A stretch of 64,000 bases of DNA from Antedon mediterranea. Its lineage: Eukaryota; Animalia; Echinodermata. Where the stretch lies: contig NC_092678.1 of assembly GCF_964355755.1 (NCBI RefSeq), positions 14,472,371 through 14,536,370 of the forward strand. Reading direction: 5' to 3'. The notes beneath the pieces were generated by a model, which searched no databases, was not told the origin of the DNA, and saw nothing but the letters and a program-made list of their open reading frames with translations. The translations under genes were made by a program, and so were the position numbers. Shown one piece after another: positions 26,069 through 62,365 of this stretch; position 1 is the stretch's first letter; every line of letters starts with the position of its first letter.

Positions 26069-26710
26069 TGTAGTGAACTTTGTAGAGTTGGTTCCGAGCG
26101 TTTGCTTTCTCTTGCGTATTAATCCACGAGACCGTACACAGACTAAACGTGATTCCACATACCAAAAGTACACTGTATTTAACTAAAACTTTTATTTCTT
26201 GTAACTGAGTATTAATACAACTTTCTGTCAGTCTAGATCTTTCTTCTCTATAATCTATACATCTTTATACTATAATCTTATTTTCTCTTCTTTAATATGT
26301 ATAACATTTACTACTTATACTTGACATGCGAATTAGGGGCTTCTGAGGAGGATCAAATGTTGCCTAAAAATTCCCCAACAAATTTATACTATTCTGATTG
26401 GCTCATAAATTGAGCAGACCTAGTCTGAAACATCCTTTAAATAACTTTAGGAAATCAGAAACATAATATTATGACATTCCCCTTCTTTAGAAAAAGATTG
26501 TATTAATCTTTTCAAAAATTTAACAGTTAAAACCATTTTACTTATTTCTACTTTATCATACCATCTCTTTAACATATTAAATTGTAGAATTTGTTTTTCG
26601 TTTCTTCTACCCCCTATGTATATTTAATATTTTACATCATTGACCGTTTTAGTCACAGTAAAGGGGCCTTGCCACTTACTGTCTAATTTACTATTTCCTG
26701 CTTCATGCTA
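26069..26710 (-). mobile_element. Duplicate copy of the Gypsy 3' fragment (copied with the tandem unit)
   Basis: Near-identical to 23492-24130 with the same junctions. LTR at 26069-26476. Confidence 0.75.
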
Positions 26711-32355: not shown

Positions 32356-33566
32356 TTGACCAAGTTTAGAGGTTCCAAGGCAACCAACGAACCTTCGTTG
32401 ACTGAGTGGCTGGAAGATTGCTCAGCCTACGCAAATCAGTATGGACTGACAGATGCCAAAAAAGATCAAGCATTGTTGGACCATTTGGGGGGAAGTGCTA
32501 AAGAAGAACTAATGTGTTATGGGGTTGATGTGCGAAGCAACCATGAGCGGATAATCAATGTTTTGAAAGAACATTTTGGTCTACTTGAGACAAAATGCTT
32601 CGTTGAGTGAGACTCTACATAATTGTGTACAACAAGATGGAGAAAGCCTGGCAGAGTTTAGTTTAGCACTAATGAGACTGTATGGAAAAATGGAAACAGC
32701 AACGACAGATGCTCGTGAAAGAACTGCAATGACAATACTAAAATATAATACTCTGAAAGAAAGATTGGTTAAGAGGTGTCCGCGAGAAATGGGTGCAGCG
32801 AGAGTTGCGGCGAATAAAAATTGATTGCAGGGGCAGTACGTTTATGGAAATGCGTAGAAAGTGCACTTGATTTTTTTTCCAAGATCAGGAACCAATCGCT
32901 AGAAGGTCCCATGGCGTATACGAGGTGCATGCTGATCAATTGGCGAATACTTTTTATCGTGAGCAAAACAATCAATCAACCGGGAGTCATGAGTTATCCA
33001 AAGAGGTCAACACCCTGAAAGATGAAATGGCCAAATTAAGGTTGGTGATCGAGAAAATGGATAGGCCATGGAGTACAAGTACTAAAAGCAAAGACGCTAA
33101 GTGCTACGAGTGTGGGCAGAAGGGTCATTATAAACGACAGTGCCATAACACAAATCGGTCACAGGACACCTATTCACAAAGGTCCTACCAACCACAGCCA
33201 AGCTACAAATCTCAACCAGCTTACCACCAAGCACCATTTCCCCAACTTCAAGGAGCCTACCAAATTCAACCTACACCTCAACAGATGTACCAGCCACAGG
33301 CAGTCAATTAACCCGGACCAAATTACCAACCACCAATAACTAGTCATCCACATACAACTTACCAGCTACAGGTAGTCAATCAACCTAGACCACAATACCA
33401 ACCACAAATAACTGGTCAGCCACAGGCAACTTACCAGCCGCATATGAACTATTCATCTCAGAAAACCACGCAGCAACAACGAACCATACAACCAGCTATG
33501 CAGCAGTCGGCAGGAGTACAGCACCCGGAAAACTTATGCTCTCCGCCATCAGAGCCAATGTGGTAG
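32356..33566 (+). pseudogene. gag: Gypsy gag (CCHC zinc knuckle, Q/P-rich tail)
   Basis: Frameshifted ORFs 32356, 32576, 32925. Knuckle CX2CX4HX4C. Frame continues past TAA 33309 to TAG ~33564. Confidence 0.75.
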
Positions 33567-36500: not shown

Positions 36501-37689
36501 TTGTTAGCTATTGATTTTCTCAAACTTGATAAGGGCAAAGGTGGTTACGAGGATGTCTTGGTTCTAACAGATGCGTTTACTAAGGTTGCACTAGCTATAC
36601 CCTGCCGAAATCAGTCAGCAATAGTAGTAGTGAAAGTCCTTCAAGAAAAGTGGTTCAATTATTATGGTGCACCACAGCGGCTTTACTCCGACCAGGGGAG
36701 AAACTTCGAAGGCCTAGTCATTAAGGAACTTTGCAAACTTTACAAAATTCACAAATCCAGGACCACGCAATATCACCCACAGGGCAATGCCCAAAGAGAG
36801 AGATTTAACCGGACCCTGTGTGGAATGATAAGATCTATTGATCATAAACAACGACGAAAATGGCCAGAGTTGCTTGGACATTTAGTGTTCTTGTATAATT
36901 CAATACCCCACAGTGTTAAGCCTTGTCTACACTATCAAACTTTATGTGTCAAAAAAGTTTGATGTGCCTATATATGGTAGTGCTATGCTTAAATATGGTA
37001 GTGATATGACATCATCATGTCCATATATGGGCACATCACATTTTTTGACACATAAAGTTTGATAGTATAGACAAAGCTTTACTGGTGTTTCACCATTTCG
37101 CCTCCTATATGGATGTGAACCGTTTACGCCATTATACCTACTTCTCAACAATTCACGGGAAAACTGGGAAGAGGACTTCATCGAATAACAAGCTGATGCT
37201 ATACAACAAGCCCATCAAGTGGCAAAAGATAGCATTGAACAGAAAATAGAAAACTCTACGCTGAAGCAGAATATACATAAAATGAGTCCAGAACTGAGCG
37301 TTGGAGATCGTGTACTGTTGAAAAGGTGTGCTTTTGAAAGCAGAAACAAGTTAGAAGACAAGTTTCATCACGGCGTCTACATCATAGTTTGGGTTAACGA
37401 CGCTGGAGACGTTTATAAGATTCGGCCTCTTCTGGGTGGCCCAACACGTACTGTAAATAGAAAACTCTTAATTGTCGATCCAAGGGAAGCAACAACTGAA
37501 GACATTGTAGGAAGTGACTCAGATGAAGAAGATGAAATGCCAACCTGTGTATTTACACATCATGACTTACCACAGCAGGATGCAATACACCAACCAGTAG
37601 AACCTCAACTCAGACGATCATCAAGATCAACTAGAGGTTTTCATAGTAACCCTGAGAAATGGCCAAAGTCTACAGTTTCTCGCCATTAA
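33536..37689 (+). pseudogene. pol: Gypsy pol (PR-RT-RH-IN)
   Basis: ORFs 33536, 34447, 35083, 36045, 37219 carry the canonical motifs in Gypsy order. Confidence 0.9.
36919..37078. mobile_element. Tourist/Harbinger-like MITE inserted in the integrase
   Basis: ~55-bp imperfect TIRs (AGCCTTGTCTACACTATCAAAC / GTTTGATAGTATAGACAAAGCT) and TTA TSD. Removing it restores HSVTGVSPF. Confidence 0.9.
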
Positions 37690-40600
37690 GTGTTGACTTA
37701 TTTTATGAACTTGGATTTATGTATGCACACCTTCTATTGTCTTGTGCTACTTTTCTGTAATTTTTAAACCATTTTAAGCTAAATAATCTATGATGATAAA
37801 GTGTTTGGTGTTTATCAATCTTTACTGCATAAGAGTTATTGTTATAATTATGTTACTTTTGTTTACCTAATTGTTAATAGGTATTTAAGTTTAAGAGTAC
37901 AGCATGTTATGGTGTCATAATATGGTATTTTGAAAATAATTAGGTACACACAAGTTCTTGTATCATGTAACATGAGATGTAAGTATAGATGATTGAAAAT
38001 TCGATAATAATGGTTTAAAGTACCACAATCTCTGAAGCTTGTATTATATAATGTACTGATCTGTCACAGGGTAATGATTATAGGGTAACCTGTGAGTTGT
38101 AGTTATAGTTTTTGGGGTATGAAGCCGTATGGTGGCACCTATTGGATTGGTCATACTCCTTTAGTTGTTAGTTGCGTTGGAAAGCAGTCTTATGGGTGAA
38201 GCTTTAGCAGTGGTCATGAGGTGCGAACAGAACTGTACTGATCTGGTGAGTGTCATGGTAACAAGGGCCATGATGGGTGGACTCGCATTGGAAATTCCTC
38301 ATACTTCTGCTATTGGGAGGGACCGTACTGGCTCCGTATTTAGTATCTTCACTTTAACAGTTGGCATGACATGATGGTTAGGAGTCCATTGCAGAATGTC
38401 TTAACGGGGAGTGGCATCCCGATGCTATTTCAGCAAACAATCGGGTATCTAATAATCAGTATACTTTTATCTTGAGACAGTGTGTCAGATTACAATATTT
38501 TGGGGCCAAGTATAGTCATCACGGGGAACATGTTATGGTTCAGTGATTTTGTTTTGATTTTTGATAATGGAATAGCCCATGGGGGATGGGAACCCTGCTG
38601 GACAGCCAAGTCTAGATAGCTGTATCCAAAGAGACATCTCTCTATTTGGCCTGGGTGACTGGGAGGGAGAGGAGTGTTCTCCTTGCTAATAATGCAAATA
38701 ATAAATGCTATATAATTTGTAATTAAACTGTCATAAACTGGTGAGTGAGAGTTTGTTATGACTTATATTTTATTTTCTGTTTCTTATAGTTGGTTTACAT
38801 TATAGGCCTGATTTTGTGAGGTTGAACATTGTTAAAACTACTGTACAAGTTAACTAGCCTAGGCCTAGGCCTAGCCCAGGCCTAGGCCTAGCCCTACATT
38901 ATATCCTAGGAGGCCTACAGTAACGACTAGCCTAATTTATGGAAATATTGCATTGAACTATCTATCTTTGATATCTGTATTACAGAGGCTGTTTTGTTTG
39001 CCTGTTTATATTCTAATAAATGTTTGTTGTGAGATCAAATCAAGACGATTTACCTGGTATCATCATTTCACGTGTCAACCGCTACCCCACATAAGTTAGG
39101 GAGGCTGGAGCCGTTTACATTACTATGAATCAACCTACTGTAACAGATCAATTAATAACAAATGATGCATCCATTCTTTTAAACAAAATATAAAAAGGAC
39201 AAAATTAGTAGTACTACTAGGCATAGTACTAGGCCTTTAGATAGTAGTACTACTAGCAGTAGTAGAAGTCTGCCTATAATAATCATCATATATATAATAT
39301 ATGCCTAGTAGTAGTTAGTTAGCTAGGCTAGTTTAGAACTAAAGAGTAGACATTAGTTACTATTGAAACTAGCCTAGGTAATAGGCCATAGTTTTAGTGA
39401 AACTAGTGTATGCCTATGACTAGTAGTCCATGGGCCATACATTTGTTTCGGTATCAAATTGGTGGCAAATGCTACCATACATTTTTGGAAAGCTTACTAT
39501 GTCTACTTTTCAGAAATCCATGATAGCAATGCCAATTGTACAGCTTAATAGTCATTTTTTTAGGATTATATAACACTGCCTACAGAAAATATGCAACACA
39601 AAATTTTGGGGTAGGGGGTAACACTTTTGCAAATAACTCTGGATTTAATGAACAGATTTGCATTTTCTTGGTATCAATATGTAGTGTATAGACTGCTTAT
39701 AAGTGTAATATATTTTTCTAAGTAAATTATTATTATTGACGCCATTAGAGGTCAGAAGGTCATTGGACTTTAATAATAAATGATGTTTTGTCTAATTAAC
39801 TTATAACTTTCAGTTTTTAACAAAAAAATACAATAGATGTTATGCAAACTGATGTTTTTATGAACATATAGACCCAAATAAACAAGAAAATTGAAGTTAA
39901 AGATTAACAAAATATAAATATGCTGTGTATTATGAAGAAATTTGTTGTTTTTAGTAATTTGTAATCGTTTACAATTATGGGGTAGGGGGTAACATTTTTG
40001 CGAATAACTTACAATTTAGTTAACATATTTGCATTTTCTTGCTAACAATATGTAGTGAATATATTGCCTAATTGTAATACACTTTTTAAAAATTAATCCT
40101 GCATTTGTTGACATCTTTAGAGATCAAAAGGTCACTGACCTTTAATAAAAAATGCAATTTCTTCTAAATTAGCTTATAAATTTCAATTTTAAACACAAAA
40201 ATACAGGAAATCTTATGCAAACTAATGTTTTTTTAAACCCATAGACACAATAAATAAGAAAATTGAATTTAACATTTTTTCAAAATTGAATATGCTGTGC
40301 ATTATAAAGAAACTTCGTCATTAGTAATTTGTGACAATTATGGGGTAGGGGGTAACCTTTTTGCAAATAACTTAAGATTTAGTGAACAGATTTACATTTT
40401 CATGTTATCATTATGTAGTGTATGGATTTCATTATTGTAATAAACTTTTTAAAAATGAATCCAGCATCTATTGACGTCTTTAGAGGTCAAAAGGTCAATG
40501 ACTTTCAATCAAAAATGCAATTTCTTCTAAATTAACTTATACATTTCAATTTCAATCACAAACTTACAAAAGATCTTATGTTGATGTTTTCCTAAACATA

Positions 40601-41469
40601 TAGACACAATGAATAGGAAAATTGAAATTAAACAAACAAATATTCTATGAAGTTATGAAGACATTTTGTCCGTTAATAATATTTTTTTATAAACAATTAT
40701 AGGGTAAGGGGTAACATTTTTTATAATAACTTTGTATTTAATGATCAAATTTGCATTTTTTTTGTATTAATATGTACTGTGTAGGTTGCCTAATTGTTAT
40801 ATTCTTGTTGAAAAAATAAAACGTAACATATTGACATCATTGTAGGTCAAACGATCATTGAACATTACCAAAAATTACAATTTCTTCCAAATTTAACATT
40901 AATAAAGTTTCAATTTTAAACACAAAGATACAACAAATCTATTACAAACTGGTATTTTTTTTCAAACCTATAAAGACAATGTACAAATACAAATTAAAGT
41001 TAAAGATTAAACACAAATAAACATGTATAGGCACTAACAATATGAAGAATTTTGACCATATTAGCAATTTGTAATCCTTAAAAATTATGGGGTAAGGGGT
41101 AACATTTTTGCTAATAACTTTGAATTTATTGAGCATATTTTGCATTTCTTGGTAACAAAAAGTAGGGTACTGTATAAACTGTTTAATTAAAAATTGTTAT
41201 ATCAAAAAATTATGCAACATTTTGATCTCAAATAATATTACCAATAGTGGTTGTGTAGTTTTATTTAAAGCCTGTAGACAAAATTTTAGTATTTAGTGTT
41301 GTTGTGGGGTACAAAATAACATTATGCATGACTTGTTGGAGGGTATACATTATTGAAAAAAAAAATAATGATTTTGTTTTAATATGAGGATAGGAGCTTT
41401 TTAAAAACATTTATTTCATCGTGAAATTACAGGGTGGATAAACTATTTTATAATTTATCGTGATTATAA

Positions 41470-41606
41470 ACTAAGTTTCACTTAAGGCTTAAGGAGTGGA
41501 GTTGAAAGAGTCGTGAGTTACAAGCCTGGCACTTGGTCAGGATTGAACCCCGGACCTTGGGATTGGAAGGCAAGCACGTTAACCACCAAGCTACAGCTCC
41601 ACTACT
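41470..41606 (-). mobile_element. tRNA-derived SINE or tRNA pseudogene
   Basis: GGAGCTGTAGCTTGGTGGTTAA (A box) and GGTTCAATCC (B box) on (-). Acceptor and anticodon stems do not pair. Confidence 0.7.
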
Positions 41607-42909
41607 TTATATAGGGTATTTGGTTATTTTTAAAATACATACCCTCCGGCTACTGTTTTAGGCTATACTGTATAAATTGTTATTATTTTACAGATTGTAC
41701 TTTAAATCAATTAATCGACTTATATAGTAATTTTAAAAATGACACTAGGGCCTACCAATTAAATTTGTATTTAAAAGATATTCTTTTTCTATAAATGTTC
41801 ATCTGATATTTTCCTGTATCTTGGTTTACAAAAATGAACTCCGTAACAATATGTAAATGTTTCAGATCTGCATATCAGCTGCAGTTTAGCAATTCACACT
41901 TTCTAGAAAAATTAATTCTAATATATTACATCGTCAAATTCCAGTCATTTAAAACAACTGGGTACGGTATATATAGAAAATGAAATCTTTAAAAGACATG
42001 ATTTTGTTATCGCAAACTAGAGTATGATCTTGTGCAATGTTCCTTGACATTTTGGAATATGATACTTCGCAAGTTTCCCGATTTTGATCAACGTTACCGT
42101 TAATATCTTTTAAAATGTTATGAAAAAGCTGACGAAAATACTAGAATCAAGTACACTGGTACAGCACGTTATAGTCTTCAGTCTGTATTCTCTAGAGATG
42201 TGAAGGGCATCCAACAATGGATAGAAACACCATTTGGCTCAGTGGCGTCTGTGAGCAATGAGGAAAATGTAAAGTATGCATGACAGTCTCTTCTGAAGAT
42301 GTACCAGATATGATTTTTCCTTCTACTCCTGTGTAAATTGTATTGACTGGACCTTCTCACCTAACTTTAGGTGGTTGTGTCAGAGTTATCCTCCAATATT
42401 ATTGTTAATTTCCATGTCAATGTCTCTATCGACACAATATTTTGGGTCCTTTCCAGGAGTCCAGAAAATACAAAGAGACTGAACACCGTAACATGCTGCA
42501 CCAGTGTTCTTGGTTAAAACATTGGTTAATAGATATTAATGGTAACCTTGATCAAAATGGGGAAAACTTACAACCACCTTCGACCATGCCAAGATACATG
42601 GCACATACTTCAAACTGCGATATGAAAACATAGAGATACCCTGTTCTTTCAAGCGTATGTGGAAGATGTGGAACTGCAGCTAATATGAAAATCTAAAACA
42701 TTGACATATTAATGAGTTTGAATAAACTAACTGTTTTCTTTAAATCAAGATGAAGTAAAATGTAATTATCCTGTAATATTACAATACCATAACAGTTTTG
42801 TTTAGAAAACTATCTCATTTGCATTTGCAAACCAGATGAACAATTATAACCTTAGAATATCTTATCAGTTACAAATAAAAGATATAATTGGTAATCTAAA
42901 CAATTTCTA

Positions 42910-45705
42910 TGATTGTTGCTAACGTTTTCCGTCTTCCGACATTACGCTTTCCACAATTTGTTTCCATTTTTTTCTGTTTATGGCAGGATGGTTTGCTATT
43001 GTGTTAGTGTCTACTAGTCCTTGTAAGTCTTTCTTTATTTGATTCATCCAGTTATTTCTTGGTCTTCCTACGGGTCGTTTTACTTTCCTGTTAGTTTCCT
43101 TCATTGTTTGTTTGATTGGGGTATCATCCGGTAATCTAATTATGTGTCCATACCATTTTAGTCTCCTTCGTTTAATTCTTTTACTCCATTCTTCTTGTTT
43201 TGTTATCTCGTATATTTTCGTGTTACACACTCTATCTGTTAATTTAATATATATCATCTTTCGCAACATTTTCCTGTGATATATATCTATACTCTCTTGT
43301 AATTTTTTGTTTAGTACCCAGAGTTCACTGTTATATAAGAAAATACTTGCTATGTATGCGTCAAACAAACGGGATTTCACGTCTATAGACATCGTTTTGT
43401 GTTCTAGCGACGGCTTCAGCTTGTTATATGCCATAGCTGCTAGTGATTTTCTTCTTTTAATGTCTTTTTCTGTGTCCAAGTTACTACCGAGGTATTTGCA
43501 TTCTTCCCATTTACTATCGGTGTTTCTTCCTATTAGGTATTCTTCTGTTTTACTTTCGTTTATCTTTAGATTGAATTCTGCTAATTTCTCTGTTACATTT
43601 TTCTTTATTTTAGTTATGTGTTCTTTTGAGTCGCTAATAAATGAGATGTCATCTGCATACTGCATCTGGATATTAAGCTGTTGTAGGGGTAGTGGTGTTG
43701 TGTTTGCTGATTCGAGTGCCTTTGCTAGGTATAGTGTGAACAGTATCGGAGACATACAGTCACCTTGTGGTACTCCTAGTGTAGTAGTAAACAATTTGCC
43801 TGTCTGTTTTCCAATTCGAAGGCTTAATTTTACATTGTTTATCAAAACTTTCAAAATGTGTAGTTCATCATCTTGTAATATATGTGTCAGTATGTCGAAT
43901 AGAGTATTCGTCCGCACCGTGTCAAATGCACTGGTCATGTCAAGTAGTAGTAGTATTATTTCGTAGTTAGATGACGCAATTGCCTTTTCTGCTAACATTT
44001 TGCATGTATGTACATGTTCGGTAGTGCTTCGTCCTCTGCGATACGCGGCCTGTGTTACAGGGACATGTTCATCTAATCTGTCGTTTATCCTATTTAGTAA
44101 GCATATTGCTAGCATTTTCCTAAGAACCGACAGTAGGATGATGGGTCGGATGTTTTTTGGTGGACCTTTTTTCTTGCCTGGTTTTGGTATTGGATGCAAT
44201 ATGCCTTCGTTGATTTCTTTAGGTATGTTTCCTGTTTTAGCTGTTTGGTTATATATGTCTGCTATGTGGTTAAAAACTTCTATAGGTGCATATTTTACCA
44301 TTTCAGGGTATACTAGGTCACTTCCTGTTCTTTTATTATTTTTTAAGCATTTTGCTGCTTTGGCAACTTCATCACCTGAAAAGGGAGACTTCATTTCAAT
44401 AGGTTTAATGTTTTCGTTTATAGGTTTTTCTTGTGATTTGTGATAGACGTTTTCAAAGAAATTGCTAATTATTTCTACCTGCTCTTCTTCGTTTGTTGTT
44501 ATACCGAACTCTGTTTCTACCACAAGTCTTTTATTTTCGTTAAGTTTTAGGTTTTTTACTGCTTGGTACATTCGTGTTGAGTCATCTTTGAATTTTTCAA
44601 TTTCAGCTATCTTTTCTTTTAGTGTGTCTTCTTTTTCTTTATTAAGTTCAGTATGAATACTCTTTATGATTTGATTTCTTTCTTTTCTAAGTTTTGTTTT
44701 CTTAGATTTGTCATTTGATGAATTTATGTCGCACCTCAATTGTTTCTGCTTCTTCGATAACTCTTGTATATATTTATTGTTTGATTTAGACTTTGCTTTC
44801 CTGTAACCAACCACTTCCAATGCTACATTCTGAAAGACTGTCGTTTATTTGGTCCATTTCTCTTGTGGTTCCAGGTCATGGATGTTCACAGATTGTATAC
44901 ATCTCGATACCTCTCTTTGATATGTTTGTCTGTTTTGTTGTGCTTGAAGTTTTGACACATCTATTTGTTTGGTTTTCTTAGCGTTACTATTTAATTTATA
45001 CCATTGTAGTGTTAAAGTTGTCTTGACTAATCTATGATCAGTGTATGTTCTCGTACCACTGTATGCTCTTGCGTTAGTGACTAGCTTCATGTGTGAATTC
45101 TTAACTAGAATGTAATCGATCTGGTTTCTGTAGGGGTTGCGTCTGATCTCTCCACTCTTCTGATCGTTATACTGATCGCGTCTCTGCGGGCATTCCCACG
45201 TAGTCCTATGTGACATCTTATGTTTAAACATGGTATTTGTTAGTACTAGATTATTTCTTAGTGCACATTCAACTAGCTGAGTTCCATTATTGTTCGTTTT
45301 TCCTTTACCATATCTTCCTACACATTGTGGGTAATCAGGATGGCTGTCCCCCGTTTTTGCATTCATATATCCAGCTAATATTAGGATATCTTTGTTTTTT
45401 GCTTCATTTAATGCTTCTTGTACTTCGTCATAGAACCTATCTCTATCCCAAGGTTGTTGTTCACTGTGTTCTAAAGTAGGTGCATATGCGCATACGAAAA
45501 GTACATTCCTGGGTTTTGGCCTACGCCTCGACCCAGGCTTACCTCCTCTACTTTCTATGTTGATTCGGGCTGTAATTACTCTCTCCGATATTTCCTTAAA
45601 TTCTGCTTTAAAACTGCTCTCAACTAGAATTCCAACGCCATGTCTTGTGTTGTTTGCGGGTCCATGATTACTATAGACAATTGAATGTTTAGAATATGTA
45701 AATTA
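42910..45705 (-). mobile_element. RTE-clade LINE, 5'-truncated, near-intact APE-RT ORF
   Basis: One frame from ~45700 to 42919 with a single TAA (44845-44847). Motifs GVG, AYAPT, NQIDYIL, TDHRLV, GVPQGDCMSP, YADD, KYLG. Very short 3' UTR with a CAA-type tail. Candidate TSD AAACAATTT. Confidence 0.9.
42919..44820 (-). CDS. Reverse transcriptase portion of the RTE LINE ORF (633 aa open frame)
   Basis: Uninterrupted ORF with non-LTR RT motifs and the RTE C-terminal RRLKWYGHIIR..RPVGRPRNNW signature. Confidence 0.85.
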   Translation of the reverse strand: MEVVGYRKAKSKSNNKYIQELSKKQKQLRCDINSSNDKSKKTKLRKERNQIIKSIHTELNKEKEDTLKEKIAEIEKFKDDSTRMYQAVKNLKLNENKRLVVETEFGITTNEEEQVEIISNFFENVYHKSQEKPINENIKPIEMKSPFSGDEVAKAAKCLKNNKRTGSDLVYPEMVKYAPIEVFNHIADIYNQTAKTGNIPKEINEGILHPIPKPGKKKGPPKNIRPIILLSVLRKMLAICLLNRINDRLDEHVPVTQAAYRRGRSTTEHVHTCKMLAEKAIASSNYEIILLLLDMTSAFDTVRTNTLFDILTHILQDDELHILKVLINNVKLSLRIGKQTGKLFTTTLGVPQGDCMSPILFTLYLAKALESANTTPLPLQQLNIQMQYADDISFISDSKEHITKIKKNVTEKLAEFNLKINESKTEEYLIGRNTDSKWEECKYLGSNLDTEKDIKRRKSLAAMAYNKLKPSLEHKTMSIDVKSRLFDAYIASIFLYNSELWVLNKKLQESIDIYHRKMLRKMIYIKLTDRVCNTKIYEITKQEEWSKRIKRRRLKWYGHIIRLPDDTPIKQTMKETNRKVKRPVGRPRNNWMNQIKKDLQGLVDTNTIANHPAINRKKWKQIVESVMSEDGKR

Positions 45706-48028
45706 TAAAAAACAATTTACAACACAGAAGCTGGATATGTTTATCATTATCAATATGTAATAACAATGAAACATCAAAGATATATATTATCCTCATATTT
45801 AAAATTCATTTATTTTAATTAATAATAAATCAAATAATGTATACCTTCCAAAAAGTCATGCATTTTGTTATTTCGTACCCCGTAACAATACTAAACGGTG
45901 AATTTTTTTCTATAGGTTTAATAAGTTAAAAACCACATAAATCTATTGGTAATAACATTTTGATAATTTTTTAATATATAGCAATTAAACAGTTTATATA
46001 TTACTTATTGGTTCCTAGAAATGCAAAATATGTCTACTAAATTCAAAGTTATTAGCAAAAATGTTACCCCTTACCCCATAATTTTTAATAATTACAAATT
46101 ACTATTACGGTCACAATTCCTAATATTATTACACATGTTTATTTGTTTTTAATCTTTAACTTCAATTTCTTGTCCATTGTCTTGATAGGTTAAAAACAAA
46201 AGTTAGATTTGGTGTATTTTTGCGTTAAATATTGAAACTTTATTAATGTTACATTTGGACGAAATTGCATTTCTTTAAATGTCCAATGACCATTTGACCT
46301 ACAATGATGTCAATATATGTTACGTTTTATTTTTTCACAATGAATATAACAATTAGGCAACCTACGCAGTACATATTAATACAAAACATATGCAAATGTG
46401 ATTACTAAATACAAAGTTATTAGGAAAAATGTAACCCCTTACCCTATAATTGATAATAATACATTACTATTAACAGACAGAATGTCCTCATAAATTCACA
46501 GAATATTTGTTTGTTAAATTCAATTTTCTTATTTATTGTGTCTATAGGTTTAAGAAAACATTAGTTTGCATAAGATATCTTGTATTTTTGTGTTTAAAAT
46601 TGAAATGTATAAGCTAATTTAGAAGAAATTGCATTTTTGATTAAAGGTCATTGACCTTTAACCTCTAAAAGACATCAATAGATGTTCGATTCATTTTTTA
46701 AAAGCATATTACAATAAAGAAATCCATACACTACATACTGATAACAAGAAAATGTAAATGTGTTCACTAAATCTTAAGTTATTTGCCAAAAACGTTACCC
46801 CCTACCCCATTATTGTCAAAGATTACTAATGACGGAACAATTTCTTTACAATGCACAGCATATTCAATTTTGAAAAATGTTAACTTCAATTTTCTTATTT
46901 ATCGTGTCTATAGGTTTAAGAAAACATTTAATTAGTTTGCATAAGATATCTTGTATTTTTGTGTTTAAAATTGAAATTTATAAGCTAATTTAGAAGAAAT
47001 TGCATTTTTTATTAAAGGTCAGTGACCTTTTGACCTCTAAAGATGTCAATAAATGCGGGATTCAATTTTAAAAAGTATATTACAATTAGGCAATCTATAC
47101 AATACATACTGATAGCAAGAAAATGCAAATCTGTTAACTAAATTGTAAGTTATTCGCAAAAATGTTACCCCCAACCCCATAATTGTAACTGATTACAAAT
47201 TACTAAAAACAACAAATGTCTTCATAATACACAGCATATTCATATTTTGTTAATCTATAACTTCAATTTTCTTGTTTATTGGGTCTATATGTTCATGAAA
47301 ACATCAGTTTGCATAACATATATTGTATTTTTTTTGTTAAAAACTGAAAGTTATAAGTTAATATTAGACAAAAAATCATTTTTTATTAAAGTTCAATGAC
47401 CTTCTGACCTCTAATGGCGTAAATAATTGTTGGATTTACTTAGAAAAGTATATTACACTTAAGCAGTCTATACACTACATATTGATACCAAGAAAATGCA
47501 AATATGTTCATTAAATCCCGAGTCATTAGCAAAAGTGTTAACCCATACCCCAAAATGTTGTGTTGCATATTTTCCGTAGGCGGTGTTATATAATCCTAAA
47601 AATGACTATTAAGCTGTACAATGGGCATTTCTATCATGAATTTCTGAAAAGTAGACATATTAAGCTTTCCAAAAATGTATGGTAGCATTTGCCACCAATT
47701 TGATACTGCTTTCGCAAAAAAGTGGACCTGGCCCATGGACTATAGGTAGAAAAGTGGGTAGGAAAACTAGGCCTATATAGTAGTTGTGCCTAGACTAGTC
47801 TAGGTATGCCTAGAGGTAGGCCTAGGCTAGCTATGCATATGCTAGGCCTGAAGTTTGCCTTAAAATTAAAATTAAATTACACAAGAGTCTCTTTAAATAT
47901 TCAAGATTTACTTTGTTTTCCAATATTTTTATTTATGCTTCTGATTTAATGGCAAAATTGGTTGTTTTGTGTCACTATTTATTCATCAGGCCTCTGTCAC
48001 ACGTGTACACGCGTACTGTGTGTAGAAT

Positions 48029-52196: not shown

Positions 52197-53255
52197 GTAT
52201 GCAAGAGACATTTTTGTAATTTAAAAAACTAAGAACATAATTGAGTTCATCTAAATATTATCTACAAGATACAAGATAAAAGATAACTTTATTGTCAAAT
52301 AGTTCAGTGAAAGATTTGAAATTGGTTTTACTCATGGCAATGTAATATAAAAATAGAATACAATCAGTAAACTGTTAAAACACAAAGTAAAACACACAGT
52401 ACTTTAAAATATACAGATAAAATGCATATACAAGAATTACAAAAATAATAAGAGGATAAAGGCTATTAGGTGTTCCCAGCGGTTCGAAAATACAATTATT
52501 TGTGTTTGTCGTCATTATATCTAAATATGTATTGTGCATATAATTATCTCCATTTATACATTTCTTAACTGTTTTAACTATGCGTCCAAATTGCTTTTTA
52601 TTGGATTCATTCGTGTTGCCATTGTAGGAAGTTAAGTTGAACATTATAACAATTTGTATAACGGCTTTGTAGAAGAGCAAAATTATTTCTTCATTTACCC
52701 TAAAGCGTTTCAGTTTCCTAAGGAAATATACCACAGCTGTTCCAGAATTATAAATTAAGTGTAGCGCCTCCAACGTTCATATCGTTTTATGGAGTAGCGA
52801 TTCCGAAAACATATTGTATACAAACCACACGAGGTACCCGGAAGCAATCAAGCATAAAACGACTGTATTTTAATAGCCAATAAAAACAAATAAAAACCGC
52901 GAAAGCCAGAAAAATAATGAATATTCATTAGAACAACCCTGGATGAAGGTAAAAAAGATGTTGATGTCGTTTTATCACGTGGATTTTCAGAGGGAATCTA
53001 ACTGAAAGTTAACCAACATTGTATACCCAACGCCAGTTTTTTTCTCAAGTGATACATTTAAAAAGTAGGTATAAATGTTTTTTTCCATATCAGTTTAAAA
53101 ATAATTTTTGAAAATGAATTCTTGATTTAGTTGGATACTTTAGTTATCCTTGAATGTTTTAACAAGGTTTGTATTCATATTGCCTTGCTGGATTTTTTCC
53201 TATGCTAGCTAGGCCCAGGCCTCCTTGCGTGGTTAAAACCAGCTGTGTATTTTTA

Positions 53256-54053
53256 CGCCGTGCCTAAAGATACGGTACCGTATTCTAACTTCTGTTTACT
53301 AAAGGTACGGTAAAATTGCATTAAGTCATAATCAGCCAATGGGTGCTGGTACGTGTGTGACGTCATCGTATAAGGACTTGGGATTTTTTTTCATATCGCG
53401 TCTGTTGCATGTTTGTGTAGAGAATTGCTATCGGTGGCGCCAGGCTGCGTGGATGTGTGTGCGCTGCAGATGAGGGTTTTATTTTTATTCCAAATGGCCT
53501 ATTTAGGCCTATATTTTTTATTAAACTTTGTTTAATAATGGTGACCATAAACAACAAGCAAATGCAGACAATAAAGGGGCCCTTAAATACTATGATTTAG
53601 ACAGTAGCCCCAGGGCTAACGAGTCACAGAAATCAGCGCACACATGCAGCTGGCCCCAGCCTGGCATCGCTTTCCCTTCACAAACAAACTCATATAATGA
53701 TGTTATAGTAGACCTACGTAGTACGTAGTACGTAGGCCTAGCCTAGGCCTCTTTTGAAACGGTTTTCTGTATTCTAGAATTAAAATCAACATGTTTTGGC
53801 TTTTCAATAATAATAACAGACGTAGGCTACATTTAGTTTTTGTCACACACGACGGCGATAATAGCGATAAATAAAGCATACAGAAAATGCGGTTGATCAC
53901 TGTTTTCGCGATATGAAAAAAAATCCACAAAGTCCTTATACGATGACGTCACACATGTACAGCACCCCATTGGCTGGTTATGACGTAATGCAATTTTACC
54001 ATACCTTTAGTAAAAAGAAGTTAGAATACGGTACCTTATCTTTAGCCACGGCG
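53256..54053. mobile_element. Mutator-like (MULE) MITE
   Basis: ~145-bp TIRs (CGCCGTGCCTAAAGATACGGTACCG / CGGTACCTTATCTTTAGCCACGGCG) and a perfect 9-bp TSD GTATTTTTA. Confidence 0.85.
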
Positions 54054-54660
54054 GTATTTTTAACAGGTAAACATGTCTGTTCTGGGGCCTGAGTGACAGG
54101 TTAAAGCTGTTTCTAGTAGGCTAGCCTGGTCCTAATTAATAATGAGGCCTAGCTTAGGACCTAGCTGGGAGGGGAGGGGAGTTACACTACAGTAGGTCAG
54201 GCTACAAGCCTATACTATATATAAAATATAGGCTACATCATCAGCAGGTTAAAGGCCTAGCAGCCTACCTAAACCTTCTTAGTCAAAGATAAGTTCTCGG
54301 GGGTGTAATATATTAATAGAAAGAAGCTATAGAGTACTGTGACATTAAATATTTAATTATAACAAATGTATATTTCTTTCATATTTGTATTGTATATTTA
54401 TTATTAATACAGTATTTTGATATGCAATCAAAATCTGAATCAGGAAATAACATTTTAACATTTTATTTGAAACATGTATTGTCATTTGAAAGATGTATTG
54501 TCTTTTGAAATGACAAAAATCATGAATTAAATTTTAATGTAACAAGAAAGTTTATAAATGAGAATTTAAATTATACAGATGTTTGAAGAAATTAATCACA
54601 CATTAAGAATAAATAAAACCAGACAAAATTCACATAATTTGTTCATCAGTTTTTGCTTAC

Positions 54661-56920
54661 CATATTGATCTATTTCTGAATCAGTGATGCGCCTAGTATG
54701 GTTTATGCATTCATGGACATTAGTAAAGGTTTTGAATACAGGTGTAAATGATTCCTGTATCTTGTGCAATTTTGTTTCAAGCAGTTGCTTACAGTTTGTA
54801 GGACAGTGATGTATCTGTTGCTTTAAAGTCATTGAGACACCATCCATGAGCTTTTATATGATGTTGAACTAAAAATAAAATGAATAGTTTAAAATAAAAC
54901 ATTTACAGTATGGCGAGAGTCAATCGCAAATAATTCTTAATTGTATTACTTATTTTGCTGTGTAAAAATTAACGAACTTCACTAGAAATTTTAGTTACTC
55001 ACTTTGCATGCTCTGTATACATGGTTTCCCACAAAACTCTTTCCGTGGTACTGCTGTCGAGGAATTTTATTTTTCCACAACACCTCGTCCATTTTTGTAC
55101 ATAGAGGTCCAGTTCAAAATGTTATCTCTTGGTTCATAGTACTTCGCTATATAAAATATAAAAGAAATATAGCATTAATTTTTATAGTATTGTATATTTT
55201 AGACATAATTTTAAATTTTAAAGGTGTTTACTGTAGTACTGACCAAGTCTTTGACCTCTTGTTCTTTCAGATTTATTCTGTGGCCAGTCTCTGCAATCTC
55301 TGCAATCTTGTTATGCTGTTTTGTCACAAGTGACACTGAGAGCTCGTTTCTTAAATCCTCAAGATTCTCTTCTAAAGACTGGATTTTAATCATTGTAGCA
55401 TTTCGATGCGCTGCAACTTCTGATATGCTTTTCTCAAAGTCTGCTAGATGATCACCTGAGATTAAACAATATTGGTCAATCAAATAAATTTCAATCTGCA
55501 TCAAAAATGAGCATCAAAATTAGTATATTTAGAAAATGTTAATGATAATATGGATAATTCATAGAAAAATAAGTTTCACCCAAAGGTTTGTTTATTATGC
55601 ATAAAAACAGGATAAACAATTTCGAAATTTACTGAATTCTATGCTGAAAGGGACAATGTATATTTAAAAAGCAACTTGACCAATTGAGTTTATTTAATGT
55701 CAATGTAAAGTTGAAACAACATTTGAAGTTACCAGTCAAGATGTCACCATCCTGTCGCATGTTAAAAATTATAACATCAAAATTGTGCACGTCTTTTTCC
55801 AGCATATCATAGAGTTTCTTAAACAACCCAAGAGAAATGTGTAATGCTGGTATTGACACCTGGAAAAATAGTTTAATAAAGAGGTATATTTATAAATTAC
55901 TGTAACAATTGTTTGTTTTGACAGTTATTTTATACTAACATTGTTATTTAATATGGAAGTACAAACACACATTTCATTGTTTGGAGTGTGTATTAAACTT
56001 TCTAAATTGAGATTTTAATTAATTTTGAATTTAACATAACATAAACACTGGGGACCTGTGCTGTTATGATTATTTACCTACCCTGTTTAATTCGATGTCT
56101 ACCAGGTATGGCCTAACAACGCTGTGCGATATTGTTTTCCTTTTTTTTTCACTACCATGGTCTACAAAATACTTGTAGTCACGATTCTAGGTCTTGATAC
56201 ATCTACAGGCTTGAGGAACATTGTTGGTTCTAATGTCATCTTGATTACAAAAACAATAGATGCAACTGTACTTTCCTTTAAAAAAATCAATTTTTAAATC
56301 TACATAATATATATAGTACTTCAGTTTTGTGTAACAAATGCCAAACAATGAGAACTAATAGCCAAAATATAAAAAAAAAATTGTATTGAAACTGGAAATT
56401 GTACTTACCATTTGGGCCAACAAGTCCATATACCTTTGACAAAATATCATAATCTCCAAAAAAGAATAGGCGGATATTGTGAGTTCTGTAAAATGAGAAG
56501 TTATTTTCATTCAATTACCATGAATTCTAATTAATTACATTAATCATAATTAAAGATATACAAATTGTAACATTTTCAAATTAAGTTGCATATTATAATT
56601 ATGTAACTCTGCTATATACTTAAGTCAGTGTTACTCATTCCAATATTATACTACTGTATTTAATATTACTTTTTGGTCTTTGGTGAGGTCCACTGGTTTC
56701 CATCTAAATCCATGACTTCATCAAGAACCAGTTTCAAGCCTTTTTCGACATTAACTATAAAATCTGGTGCTTGGAATGCCAAAATGACAATAATACTGTG
56801 CAGTGCATTGGGTTTAGGTAAACTGCAAATTTGAACTTCAAATTTAGTGGTATCACCAGCCTTGTCTCCACCAAACTTGAGAAATATGTCTCCACCTAGC
56901 TTAGGCCCACATTACTGTCA
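54661..56920 (-). pseudogene. Multi-exon Chapaev/RAG1-like DDE transposase, degenerate
   Basis: Exons ~56920-56670 (LKFGGDKAG), 56485-56409 (FFGDYDILSKVYGLVGPNG), ~56276-56082 (KYSCIYC), 55859-55733 (IPALHISLGLF), 55455-55244 (coiled coil), 55146-55003 (RQQYHGKSFVGNHV), 54868-54661. GT-AG introns; several stops. Confidence 0.75.
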
Positions 56921-59900
56921 AGTTTATCGCCGGCGTCAACGCACTTTCTAAGCCTATCGCCAAACCGTTTTCTCGCTGATAACAATAACAATGTATAAAG
57001 GGTTGAAAAATATGCGAGTTTTACTAAAAACTGAACCAGGCTATATATTAACATAACTTGTATTATTTTATTTATATAATAATGATGGCCTATAATCTAG
57101 TTCGTTCTTTTTCTAAAAAAATGAATTATATACAAAAAATAAGTTAAGAATACAATGATATTTTCTACTTACGATTGTTTACTATTTCATTACACAGTTT
57201 ATATCGACTTCCTGGTTTAAGTGTGGGAGATTATTTCAGTAAAATGGACAATGTCATCGTTTATTTATTAATTTATATTAAAGAAACAATAAAATATTGA
57301 TTTTTTAATTGAACATAAACTTTTTTAATCGTTTGGTTTTGTATAAAATGTGTTTTCTACATAAAAACTAACGGTAGCAAAATTTAATTTGGCGTTCGCG
57401 AAATAATGGTTTGTAAACAAAATTCATAAGTTTGCGCGGATCGGAGAGCGTCGTCTGCTAACACTGAGGGCGCTTTACTTTTTCTGATATCTTAACACTA
57501 GTTGAAACAGCTGTGATACAAACGTGTATTAGCTTTGCGAACAATTGCTGCAGTCTGGTCTGTCCATGTAAGTTTCACATCAATCATGGTTCCTAAATAT
57601 GTATATTTGTCAACTTGTTCAACAACTGATCCGTCAATTATAAGTGGTTCAATTGAGGTTTTTTAATTCTGAAATCAATAATTAATTCTTTAGTTTTCTT
57701 AATATTGAGCTCTAAGTAATTATATATTTACTTCATCGAAGTAATCGTAGGTTTGTCTGACATGAAACCCGTTATTACAGTATCATCTGCATACTTGATG
57801 ATGGAGCACTTAAGGTCTTCACACGCATAGTCACTCGTATAGAGTGTAAATAAAATGGAGGATAATACATAACATTGTGAGGCGCCGGTGCTGACTTTGC
57901 ATACTTTAGATTGCGCATCTCCGATCTTAATATACTGTTTTCGTTTCCTAAGGTAACTGATAAGCCATAACAACATTTTAGTGTTGACATTTAATTTATA
58001 CATTTGAAAGCACTAGAAAAGTCAATAAAAGTTGATATGATGAAATATTATCTTTTATAGAATAAGTGTGTCTCGCCAATTTAACATCATAATAATCGAG
58101 GGTCATTCACACATATGTATTTACATAGTAGTCTTTCAATTGTTCTGTTTATTTTTAAGCTGGTTAGAATATAATTATTATTCTTGAAATAATGTCAATT
58201 TGAAAATTTACCTGAATCTGATAACCAAAGTTCTAAACAGAGACTGAAGGAAGACAGGGTTGCTATTGAGAAATTATTCAATGAGTTGCTAGTGATTGAG
58301 GGAGTTGAAATAACAGAAGTGGGAAATACACGGAAGACGGGTGTAGAATGGCAAGAGTTTTTTTGGATAGCCTGAAAAGTAAAATGGAAGTGATGGTAAA
58401 TGCAAAAAAACTTAGACGCACGCATTTCTAAAGAACATATATATTAATCTTGATAGATCAAAAAAAGAGAGGCAAATGAACTATGAGTTAAGACAGGAAC
58501 TAAGAACAAGAAAAGTTAACGGCGAGATTAATCTTGTTATAAGAAGAGGTAAAATTGTGAAGCGGGATAGCGAACTGGCGTTTGATCGTTTTCGAGGCCC
58601 TAGTTCATCATCATAAAGAATTTTCGAATATAGAATTTTTTAGTTTGGAAGAAAATTATTTTAAGTGAAACACAAATTTATAAGAAGAAAAAAATGTACA
58701 GAGGACAAGAGAAATTTTAAAACTTTTATAGAAGGAATAAAGCAGAAGAAATCTAGTATAAGAAACGATGACATTGTTGATTTTCATGAGAAGTCGTTGA
58801 CTTTTCTTTACACAAATGCAGATGCCTTGAGAAATAAAATAGGTGAGTTGCGTGATAGTACAAATCAAAAAACTTGATGTGGTTGCAATAACAGAAGTAA
58901 ATAACAAAACTTGTACAGACATATTGGAAGTTGAGTTAAGCATCAAGTGATATACACAATTTGATTCTGGCAGAAGTGATAGAGGTGTGGTGATTTTAGC
59001 AAAGGAAGAGCTGAAATGCCAGTATCTGTAACGAGTTACTAAACCAAATTTTCACTTTTCAGGTATATCTCTGCTAAAAAGGCACCTAGAGTTCTGATTT
59101 TAGGTGCAAATTATATGGTAGTGGGGTCACCAAACATACTGGTATAACTAACATTTTGATTCCATGGCGGCCATGTTGGATTTCAAAATTGCGGATTTCA
59201 AATTTCCATTTTTCAGGTATATCTCTGCTAAAAAGGCACCTAGAGTTCTGATTTTAGGTGCAAATTACGTTAATGGGGTCACCAAACATATTGGTATTTA
59301 ACTGACATTTTTATTGTATGGCGGTCATTTTGAATTTCAAAATGGCGAACTCAAAATGATTCAGTACGGTACCTACAGTTATAATTTTAGGTACAATGTA
59401 TAATAATTATAGTATTGAGGTCAACAAACATATTAGTATAACGTCATTGATTACATGGCGGCCATTTTGAATGTAGCTCAACCCGTAGTGGCTTTACACT
59501 ATTTGTTTACGTTCATAATTACATGTATTTAACACGGACACTTATTGTAGGTTACATTTTCCCTGGCAACCACACAGCTCTGTATATCGTAAATCACTCT
59601 TTCTGCATTTACAGCATCCAAGATCACAGTCGGTGTGTCCAAAGCGAATTAAAACCTTTGTGACATCTGAAAGTTCTCCAAGCAATGAATCCAAGCTGTA
59701 CTAAATTTGTTGCCGTCCTTCCTCTATCCCCAGTTCGCTGGGTCCTATTCAACCCTGAATACATCTAGACAGTCGTACCACTTCCTGGCTTCCGTTTCAC
59801 ATGTTCTCTTAATGCCGCAGATGTTGGGGGATATTTTCAATAGTCTTTCTCTTGTTGTAAAAAGATATCGTATTGCATCATTAAATGTTCTGCAGTACAC

Positions 59901-61054
59901 ATAGTTACAACAAACTGTTCTAGATAATCTGTGTCTGTTTCACTAACATGCCCTACAGACAATGACATCCTCTCAAAAACTGGAGTCATACAGTACATGG
60001 CATCTTTTTCAAAGTCTCGTCAAATGTATCTTTACCTTTTCCTTAAACAGATGAAGTTCTATCACAACCGCTAATGGTATGAAAGAACAAGTAAGCGGCT
60101 GATGTTTGTGATCCAAGAGAAGAAGCAATCTCGTGTATTGGGATGTACTTCAAGTGCTTCCCCACTCCAAATTCGATCAGAAGCTCGTGGATGCCAGATA
60201 TTCTGTGGAAAGCTGACAACAACATCACTGTGTACCAGTCTTGACAATGCGTGGAAAATTTCAGCGGCAAGTTTAACGTGAACAAACATACGTTCATCTG
60301 CCTCTTCTATGTTACATGGCATCAGCGATTGTATATTTACTGGTTTGTTACAGCTCTGTCTCCCAAAGATCCTACAAACATTCCGTGATTTGTGCCAATG
60401 TTCTCTACTACTTCAGTTACAATAAATGAAAACCACTCCGATTTGTTGTCATCAAATCTAAAAAAATGTGGTCCAATTGTTGGGCATGCTCCCGCTGGCT
60501 TTAACGACCATCCTTACACCACAAACGCGGTTTGAACGTGTACCAGACTTTAAACTGTCATTTAAGTATATATCGAAAAACAAATCTAGTCGTGTCACTG
60601 ATCGAAGTTGACACAAATCACGGAATGTTTGTAGGGTCTCTAGGAGACAGAGCTGCAACAAACCAGTCTGTAAATATACAACTGATGATGCCACGTAACA
60701 TAGAGGCAGATGAATGTATGTTTGTTCATGTTAAACATGCCGCTGAATTTTTTCTGCGCATTCTTGTCAAGACTGTAGACAGTGATGTTATTGTTATTGC
60801 ATTGTCAGCTTTCCACAGAATACCTAGGATCCACGAGCTTTGGATCGAGTTTGGAGTGGGGAAGCACATCCCAATACACGAGATTGTTTCTTCTCTTGGA
60901 CCACAAGCATCAGCCGCTTACTTGTTTTTTTCATTCCTTTAGCGGTTGTGATACAACTTCATCTGTTCAAGAAAAAGGTAAAGCTACATTTAACGAGACT
61001 TGGAAAAAGATGCCAAGAATGACTTCAGTTTTCGATGTGCTGTCATTGTCTGTA

Positions 61055-61370
61055 AGGTAAAGTGTCGAGACCTAAGCTAATTATAATGGCCGTGGTGCCC
61101 ATGTCCATTTCTTTAGCGTTTGAGCCAGACTCCACTAAGTGTGTATGTTTGTGGGAGTACGCCACTCATCCCGCACAAACGAGTCTGATTTACCTTCCCA
61201 GTACTTTTTACATACCGGTACCCATTTCTATCATCTGGGTGGGGAGGAACAATGTGGATAAAGAATCTTACTTAAGGACTCAACACTGCAGTGACCGACC
61301 GGGCTTGAACTAGCAACCTATTGATTGCAAGTCCAATGCTCTAACCACTGCGCCACAGTGCTCCACACTC
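61055..61370 (-). mobile_element. tRNA-derived SINE with a Deu/Nin-like central domain
   Basis: TGGCGCAGTGG A box, AGTTCAAGCC B box, GTCCTTAAGTAAG..CACATTG..AAATGGGTACC core, CTTTACCTT tail. 11-bp TSD CATTGTCTGTA (61044-54, 61371-81). Confidence 0.85.
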
Positions 61371-61649
61371 CATTGTCTGTAGGGGATGTTAGTGAAATAG
61401 TTCATTGCTGGAACTTTCAGATGTCACAAAGGTTTTAATTCGCTGTGGACACACCGACTGTGATCTTGGACGCTGTAAATGCAGAAAGAGTGATTTACGA
61501 ATATGATGTACATAGCTTTGTGGTTGCCAGGGAAAATGTGACCTACAATAAGTGTCCATGTTAAATGCATGTAACTATAAACATAAACAAATAGTGTAAA
61601 GCCAGTACAGTTGGAGTTACGTTAAAAATGGCCGCCGGCGGCAATGCAA

Positions 61650-62365
61650 TCAATATGTTTGGTGACCCATTACCACATAATTTGAACCTAAAATCAGAAC
61701 TCTGTGTACCTTTTTAGCAGAGATATACCTGAAAAGTGAAAATTTGGGTCCGCAATTTTGAAATCCAAAATGGCCACCATGCAATCAAAATGTTAGTTAT
61801 ACTAATATGTTTGGTGACCCCATTACCATATAATTTGCACCTAAAATCAGAACTCTAGGAGCCTTTTTAGCAGAGATATACCTGAAAGTGAAAATTTGAA
61901 GTCCGCCATTTTGAAATCCAACATGGCCGCCATGCAATAAGAATGTTAATTATACCAATATGTTTGGTGACCCCACTACCATATAATTTGCACCTAAAAT
62001 CAGAACTCTAGGTGCCTTTTTAGCAGAGATATACCTGAAAAGTGAAAATTTGGGGTCCGCCATTTTGAAATCAAACATGGTCGCCATGCAATCAAAATGT
62101 TAGTTATACCAATATGTTTGGTGACCCCACTTCCATATAATTTGCACCTAAAATCAGAACTCTAGGTGCCTTTTTAGCAGAGATATACCTGAAAAGTGAA
62201 AATTTGGGGTCCGCCATTTTGAAATCAAACATGGTCGCCATGCAATCAAAATGTTAGTTATACCAATATGTTTGGTGACCCCACTTCCATATAATTTGCA
62301 CGTAAAATCAGAACTCTAGGTGCCTTTTTAGCAGAGATATACCTGAAAAGTGAAAATTTGAAATC
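61650..62365 (+). repeat. ~153-bp tandem array (about 5 units), Academ subterminal repeat; inverted copies at 59047-59470
   Basis: GAGATATACCTGAAA recurs at ~61720, 61873, 62026, 62180, 62334. Confidence 0.9.

Follow-up and report, generated by a model that had tools for sequence, protein, structure and literature searches.

A dead Chapaev transposon copy from Antedon mediterranea with one short and one long end at a spacing resembling that of V(D)J recombination signals

The origin of the 12/23 rule of V(D)J recombination is debated. Some Transibs have been called the only other known case (PMC8355894), and a later paper traced the rule to RAGL and Transib ends (10.1101/2023.08.20.553239). 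An asymmetry of one helical turn between the two transposon ends has been reported for five Transib families (PMC1131882), for subgroup I Transibs and AanRAGL (PMC9435367), and for PflRAGL-A (10.1101/2023.08.20.553239); symmetric Transibs exist as well (PMC1131882, PMC9435367). Chapaev transposons, for which motifs of the DDE core have been described within the Chapaev/CMC group (PMC4079192, PMC12730594), are placed outside Transib and RAGL in published trees, according to the figure legends of PMC4411706 and PMC12730594. No description of asymmetric Chapaev ends was found in the literature searched, with Repbase Reports 2007, subscription journals and paper supplements being outside its scope. 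Here, the element located at positions 52732–57515 of a 64,000-nt stretch of Antedon mediterranea DNA (NC_092678.1; hereafter the window, whose positions serve as coordinates) was confirmed to be a dead, internally deleted copy of a Chapaev transposon. A conserved 9-mer lies 13 bases past the heptamer at one of its ends and 23 bases past it at the other and, judging from sequence comparison, would probably be read by a RAG1-like transposase dimer favouring the pairing of a short with a long end.

The element is bracketed by two copies of ATAC, representing a 4-bp duplication of the target site (TSD; left copy 52728..52731, supported by the end reading and an empty-site joint; right copy 57516..57519, by the end reading). 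Its left tip, CACAGCTGTTCC (52732..52743, plus strand), consists of the heptamer and GTT and marks the short end, located 3' relative to the transposase gene. The right tip, CACAGCTGTTTC (57504..57515, minus strand), belongs to the long end, which is the 5' one as deduced from the end reading and the exon placement. Accordingly, the left end reads CACAGCT, 13 bases and the inner 9-mer AAATTAAGT (52752..52760, plus strand), and the right end, read inward, CACAGCT, 23 bases and AGAAAAAGT (57477..57485, minus strand, running from 57485 to 57477). At both ends, the 9-mer is followed by an inner-block extension of the form AGCGCC..CA..GTT (52761..52777, plus strand; 57460..57476, minus strand). Tips, spacers and TSD are thus those claimed in an earlier sequence-only reading of this DNA. 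It had also held that the boundaries are fixed by an interrupted open reading frame of a long interspersed nuclear element (LINE), which proved correct in part. The LINE frame is split by the element (...KANTRLY / element / VYFLRKLKRF), and other LINE copies featured an empty-site joint (52728>57535) with a single ATAC, the respective contig also being about 10 bases shorter than the right flank found here. The left flank carries an extra AT beside the TSD, not mentioned in the sequence-only reading, so that the frame fixes the boundary only to within 2 bp. On the minus strand, the host LINE remnant comprises a reverse-transcriptase portion ahead of the insertion (57516..58012; RVT_1, E 1.6e-4, below the curated cutoff) and a portion after it (52378..52731; ALKBH8_N, E 2.4e-5).

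Comparison of the two ends revealed 11 identical bases among the 12 of the tips and, as an ungapped match beyond them, 17 identical bases among the 26 of the inner block at an offset of 10. This offset was the best of 41 (P = 0.042 if any offset is allowed, 0.007 for offsets of 9–11, based on 3000 dinucleotide shuffles), which on its own constitutes modest evidence, and the 64-kb window holds no second copy of either end. The offset might have arisen through a 10-bp indel private to this single decayed copy, or the match might be fortuitous, a reading favoured by the P value of 0.042 for the window element alone and by the right end having been examined only within the whole element. Copies of the Antedon family were surveyed by aligning assembled contigs of five public runs (X1–X5; two organisms, two studies) to the element, X2–X5 representing one sample, possibly that of the window DNA, and X1 originating from a second organism (organism A). 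The depth rises exactly at 52732, where several different flanks join. In X5, a contig with a depth of 923 spans 52732–52829 with five substitutions and a one-base gap, compared with a depth of about 24 for a single-flank contig. Most of this depth carries C at 52762 and 52769, as most other copies do within the extension, and the change at 52769 improves the match between left and right ends. The left end in X1 features the same spacing next to a different flank, and no 10-base indel was listed among the left-end contig alignments. The short left end is thus no private deletion, being the form found in the majority of copies and shared with a second organism. Furthermore, related families repeat the geometry, and a profile derived from them picks 13 and 23 in the window element, so that a private indel or chance match is largely refuted and considered very improbable.

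For the right end, aligned only within the whole element, the bin of the last 44 bases reached mean depths of 4052, 620 and 73 in X2, X3 and X4, and the adjoining flank bin 338, 56 and 10, respectively, which fits multi-copy cover up to the tip. Interior depth in X3 was found in two classes, at about 10 and about 60 times that of the single-locus contig, which were interpreted as a family close to complete and a larger subfamily of deleted copies, although contig depth is, according to the tool's warning, no measure of copy number. In addition, a contig in X2, X3 and X5 (52729–52762) agrees with the left end over no more than its first 31 bases, comprising tip, spacer and 9-mer, before continuing into unrelated sequence; it may represent a truncated copy or else a sister end lacking the AGCGCC extension.

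Relatives were sought by a scan with a 52-row alignment, which yielded 83 loci (80 from metagenomes and 3 from genomes), and their ends were searched by tip identity together with a TSD or GTT, a procedure blind to the inner block. Convincing tip pairs with an offset of 10–11 bp were detected in 15 of the 83 loci. In 11 of these, an exact TSD of 4 bp was present, 8 distinct sites being represented; 65 loci yielded no tip pair, and the pairs from L048, L059 and L061 were considered spurious or nested. The paired set was supplemented with L079 and L005, the latter having a best offset of -9 and no matching TSD. The 15 loci fall into five families with best offsets of 10 (L019), 11 (L038), 10 (L058), 10 (L042) and a tie of 9 and 10 (L071), P for any offset ranging from 0.009 to 0.20 per family. 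These families are distant, with transposase identities of 25–30% to P0005, the Antedon family protein introduced below, and of 36–43% between and 53–63% within the two clusters that they form.

In total, 26 ends were pooled: 15 from eight two-ended elements (recognized by tip, TSD or contig end), seven single ends recognized by the tip, and four by a motif that contains the 9-mer. The 9-mer, with CACTTAG as its commonest core, was located 11–14 bases after the heptamer in 16 ends and 22–23 bases after it in the remaining 10, and each of the two-ended elements (8/8) combined one end of the former with one of the latter kind. A leave-one-family-out profile, free to choose among 30 positions, recovered the assigned place in 24 of the 26 ends. 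Applied to the window element, with the Antedon family left out of the profile, it chose 13 (6.2 bits) on the left and 23 on the right, the latter being the best free position, yet with just 0.2 bits. Besides the 9-mer, bases 8–10 (GTT) are conserved across ends, and the rest of the spacer is not.

These results bear out two proposals of the sequence-only reading, namely that bipartite short and long ends are a feature of the lineage, since five related families keep the 10–11-bp offset, and that the inner block stands in a 13/23 nonamer register, which the profile of other families picked as well. Symmetric ends in other copies, named there as grounds for giving up the idea, were not what the majority left-end form and the relatives presented. 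Conservation of the inner block was confirmed for the 9-mer and not for the extension AGCGCC..GTT. The latter was not upheld as typical of the lineage: the two ends of the Antedon family agree at 11 of 17 positions, as opposed to 1–6 of 17 in six relatives, and by this comparison the extension appears private to the Antedon family. The suggested likeness to the nonamer of V(D)J recombination signal sequences (RSSs) did not hold at the sequence level, with matches of 4/9 on the left and 6/9 on the right. Positions 5–6, occupied by A in the RSS nonamer (PMC1131882), are AA in the right and TA in the left end of the window element, and T was found there in 23 and 21 of the 26 ends, respectively.

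Several further observations were made among the relatives. The most RSS-like end was the 5' end of L080 (66–93), reading CACGGCC, 12 bases and ACAAAAAGT, with 7/9 matches to the RSS nonamer at the exact 12RSS spacing; a 3' end was not found for this locus. In L035, L036, L038, L039, L040 and L048, a second CACAGCAGTT-tipped end occurs 1.5–2 kb past the 3' end of this family, which suggests a larger composite or nested element. Three loci (L081, L082 and L083) represent Chapaev-type transposase matches in records labelled as bacterial metagenome-assembled genomes and are likely eukaryotic contamination; two of them were used, as single ends only. Among viral contigs, 89 pattern matches contained no relative.

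The side of the gene on which the long end resides differs between families. In the five relative families, the short end is at the 5' side of the gene. The window element has its long end there, as does L005, and L016, L020, L023 and L081 have short 3' ends. A FastTree phylogeny of 43 of the 83 loci and seven proteins (without outgroup, SH-like support; near-duplicates and most short fragments omitted) placed all 12 rows labelled 5'-short or 3'-long within one 19-row clade (support 88) and all six rows of the opposite type outside of it. One polarity flip would explain this pattern, with single-end labels being weaker evidence and kin sharing their labels. A private inversion of the gene in the window copy was considered. 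The same polarity in L005 and in four single 3' ends speaks against it, although no contig bridging the right end and the N-terminal exons was present among those examined; AT skew was uninformative in this respect. Whichever side is long, each element keeps one end of each kind.

The transposase of the family was identified by an 81-aa frame of the element, which matched a protein labelled Antedon mediterranea at 97%. The corresponding protein cluster has five members on contigs of three different sizes, among them P0005 (XP_071961268.1; 890 aa), an apparently intact Chapa-RING-DDE transposase and single-gene enzyme. RING-type and DUF1280 family matches were seen on its cluster mate P0001, and 1603 relatives were found at E <= 0.001 among 50%-identity representatives. 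Across 52 aligned homologues, residues D402, D478, E838, C497/C500, L564/H565 and H812/H817 of P0005 are invariant or nearly so, with E838 aligning with the second Glu of the RAG1 EGNE motif. They correspond to the motifs described for Chapaev/CMC transposases (PMC4079192, PMC12730594).

The window copy keeps residues 393–788 of P0005, distributed over seven minus-strand exons with GT-AG borders and within-exon identities of approximately 90–99% to P0005; the gene lying on the minus strand, the right end of the element is its 5' end. In the direction of the gene, and as placed by the P0005 alignment, these exons are 56670..56894 (residues 393–466; a cut exon with the first catalytic Asp in GGD, also supported by the protein match and by Pfam DUF1280, its upstream coding part being deleted), 56409..56485 (467–492; second catalytic Asp in GDY), 56082..56275 (493–559; C(2)C motif, with one in-frame stop and one residue deleted), 55733..55859 (about 560–600; PALH motif), 55244..55455 (about 601–671), 55003..55146 (672–719; one in-frame stop) and 54661..54868 (720–788; one in-frame stop), the last being the final exon kept, with the C-terminal exons and the third catalytic residue gone. 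Residues 1–392 and 789–890 are absent, and together with the three in-frame stops this renders the copy dead. One family contig continues for about 1.3 kb beyond 56894.

The Chapaev identity and the relationship to RAG1 assumed in the sequence-only reading were corroborated by the family matches, a fold search and a profile alignment. An AlphaFold model of P0005 (predicted local distance difference test score, pLDDT, 84.7) retrieved RAG1 as the first match (E 1.3e-16, template modelling (TM) score 0.42 by query, 12% identity), followed by ProtoRAG (6b40, E 5.9e-12) and HzTransib (E 2.6e-7); the predicted fold is therefore RAG1-like, at 12–14% identity to RAG1 in structural alignment. The family profile aligned with residues 101–490 of mouse RAG1 (E 2.4e-13), a stretch that spans the N-terminal zinc finger as well as the GGRP hook and the helices of the nonamer-binding domain (NBD), and the sequence-profile alignment of the catalytic core to RAG1 was below significance. 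A G[QRK]P hook precedes the next helix by 70–79 residues in 23 of 40 long homologues, compared with 74 in zebrafish RAG1, and the NBD-like segment is of full length in the two-ended relative families. In P0005 and P0014, which are 49% identical, GRP is located just 26 residues before the helix, the intervening stretch appearing in the model as a short hairpin followed by a linker of low confidence. The Antedon sub-lineage thus likely keeps the GRP hook without about 50 residues of NBD-like helices, unless both gene models skip the same stretch.

Such resemblance could also be expected of an element of the Transib or RAGL type that has genuine RSS ends and is close to the direct ancestor of RAG, for which the CACAG tip, the 13/23 spacing, RAG1 as top fold match, and a RING and an N-terminal zinc finger like those of RAG1 might be quoted. 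This identification is extremely unlikely in view of the 4-bp TSD, the low structural identity to RAG1, the DUF1280 family and the core alignment below significance. Moreover, no RAG2-like frame was seen in the six frames of the deleted window copy.

Taken as the work of a Chapaev enzyme, the ends suggest the following mechanism. The DDE core would bind and cut the CAC tip together with GTT, and the inner 9-mer may be bound by the segment aligning with the RAG1 NBD and its GRP hook. An extra helical turn would leave the 9-mer on the same DNA face, so that a flexibly linked module could tilt and thereby accommodate a short end together with a long one, similar to the RAG NBD dimer, which pivots to accept one 12 and one 23 signal (10.1101/2023.08.20.553239). 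By this analogy, a 12/23-like preference for unlike ends in Chapaev is probable. As the hook is kept, the NBD-like helices are lacking and the ends share a longer GC-rich block, the contacts in the Antedon family likely differ from those of its relatives. The window copy itself could be mobile only with an enzyme supplied from another copy.

A number of points weigh against this proposal. Single families are weak when taken alone (P for any offset 0.009–0.34), L079 failed the offset test with a best offset of -3, its 5' tip apparently carrying a 3-base insertion, and the five families fall into two related clusters, which leaves about three independent cases with the window included. Among the 26 ends, 11 are single and unpartnered, four of them selected with the 9-mer-containing motif. 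As the consensus used as seed for the 9-mer had been picked by eye with the data already in view, the profile placement serves to confirm the register rather than to provide an independent P value. In the window element, the right-end 9-mer has the low score given above, and support from other copies for this end is indirect, coming from the whole-element alignment with 12 of 111 indel rows shown. The 9-mer is not the RSS nonamer, P0005 and P0014 have no room for the three NBD helices, yet the Antedon family ends stay asymmetric, and for invertebrate RAGL enzymes a fairly low sensitivity to asymmetric ends has been proposed (PMC7204232).

The layout may therefore be real and conserved without any pairing rule, the 9-mer being an auxiliary site that is recognized at both distances alike or by a factor of the host, with like ends pairing equally well. 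Consistent with this, RAGL enzymes have been proposed to depend on the outer 15–17 bp (PMC7204232), RAG1 without RAG2 showed no preference for 12/23 over 12/12 (PMC8355894), the Antedon family lost most of its NBD-like helices, and the long-end side flips relative to the gene. We nevertheless regard this explanation as unlikely, because no two-ended family with like ends was encountered among the eight elements at 25–30% protein identity, with spacer sequences free to vary, a state hard to keep without selection for unlike ends.

Concerning evolution, it is tentatively proposed that Chapaev transposases enforce a 12/23-like rule without RAG2 and that the geometry stems from the common ancestor of Chapaev, Transib and RAG1, having survived a new 9-mer, a flip in polarity and, in the crinoid family, the loss of most nonamer-binding helices. 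For this step, the alternative is that Chapaev and Transib/RAG acquired the one-turn offset independently, under the constraint of a shared dimer geometry, instead of inheriting it. A separate origin would agree with the differing 9-mer, TSDs of 4 instead of 5 bp, and the symmetric Transibs (PMC1131882, PMC9435367). It appears somewhat doubtful, given that the distances between tip and inner block equal those of the RSS nonamer, that the GRP hook and the NBD-like segment align with RAG1, and that asymmetric ends are found in subgroup I Transibs and RAGL elements (PMC9435367, 10.1101/2023.08.20.553239).

The findings suggest that the spacing underlying the 12/23 rule of the immune system probably has an older origin and a wider distribution than has been described. 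Conserved spacing of 12–13/22–23 in Chapaev, a more distant branch at 12–14% identity to RAG1, would place the geometry further back and would dissociate it from the nonamer sequence as well as from RAG2. With an apparently intact single-gene enzyme on record (P0005), the pairing question is directly testable, and the Antedon family, with its hook kept and NBD-like helices lacking, represents a natural test of what reads the asymmetry.

The window contains several other elements. Nested in the Chapaev copy is an unrelated 798-bp miniature inverted-repeat transposable element (53256..54053), which was recognized by end comparison from its 136-bp terminal inverted repeats (TIRs; 88% alike) and the 9-bp TSD GTATTTTTA, with a depth far above that of the host element; by the length of its TSD, it is presumably a Mutator-type element. 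An 8.3-kb element at 39451–47706 has inverted arms of about 1.7 kb made of 360–390-bp repeats and includes a LINE with endonuclease and reverse-transcriptase-like frames (42919–45702). The 3.3-kb region at 59044–62360, in which long inverted arms of 153–154-bp repeats flank decayed frames without a useful Pfam match (60043–61060), is probably another DNA transposon. Furthermore, two broken pol regions of long-terminal-repeat retrotransposons with reverse transcriptase, RNase H and integrase-like frames, recognized by eye, are located at 7775–10730 and 32871–37689, the latter bracketed by a 282-bp direct repeat at 31980 and 38531, and a tandem array of approximately 2.59-kb units (86–98% alike) extends over 19792–28453.

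Compared with known systems, the element is a Chapaev by every feature tested. It shares with Chapaev (CMC/CMCT, DUF1280) the CAC..GTG termini (PMC4079192), a TSD within the 3–4-bp range (ATAC here; 4 bp at the eight sites in relatives), a DDE core carrying the motifs C(2)C, LH and H(4)H in P0005, the last exons being lost from the window copy, and an N-terminal Chapa-type zinc finger with a RING, as known from some subgroups (PMC4411706). Chapaev elements as published are characterized by CAC termini, 3–4-bp TSDs and short TIRs, and the accessible descriptions mention no second block at short and long distances (PMC4079192, PMC4411706, PMC12730594, 10.64898/2026.01.24.700457). The Antedon family differs from other Chapaev in the roughly 50 NBD-like residues that it lacks and in its long end at the 5' side of the gene, opposite to most relatives.

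The asymmetric Transibs (Transib5, Transib2_AG and TransibN1-3_AG; subgroup I) likewise combine a heptamer, a variable spacer and an inner block with one short and one long end and a related fold, but feature a 5-bp TSD and an A-tract nonamer and have no Chapa or RING domain (PMC1131882, PMC9435367); in the five families named in PMC1131882, the 5' end is short and the 3' end long. RAGL elements (PflRAGL-A with a 10-bp asymmetry, AanRAGL with 4/13, ProtoRAG with 27/31) share an asymmetry of about one turn, the GRP hook, the N-terminal zinc finger and the RAG1-like fold, and differ in their RAG2L partner gene, 5-bp TSD and an A-rich TR2 adjoining the heptamer (10.1101/2023.08.20.553239, PMC9435367, PMC8355894); the tail of P0005 contains no CCGHC motif. 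Because of its 4-bp TSD and different 9-mer, the element is neither a Transib nor a RAGL element, nor are its ends true RSSs. With the 12RSS and 23RSS of V(D)J recombination, the Chapaev-type ends have in common the CAC tip and the inner 9-mer at a spacer of 12 +/- 1 or 22–23 bases, the RSS spacers of 12 +/- 1 and 23 +/- 1 comparing with 13/23 in the window element and 11–14 and 22–23 in the pooled ends. They differ in the nonamer, ACAAAAACC as opposed to the commonest Chapaev core CACTTAG, and in the conserved GTT at bases 8–10. As far as can be judged from sequence, the end layout would work like that of RAG, its spacing being RSS-like and its 9-mer sequence its own.

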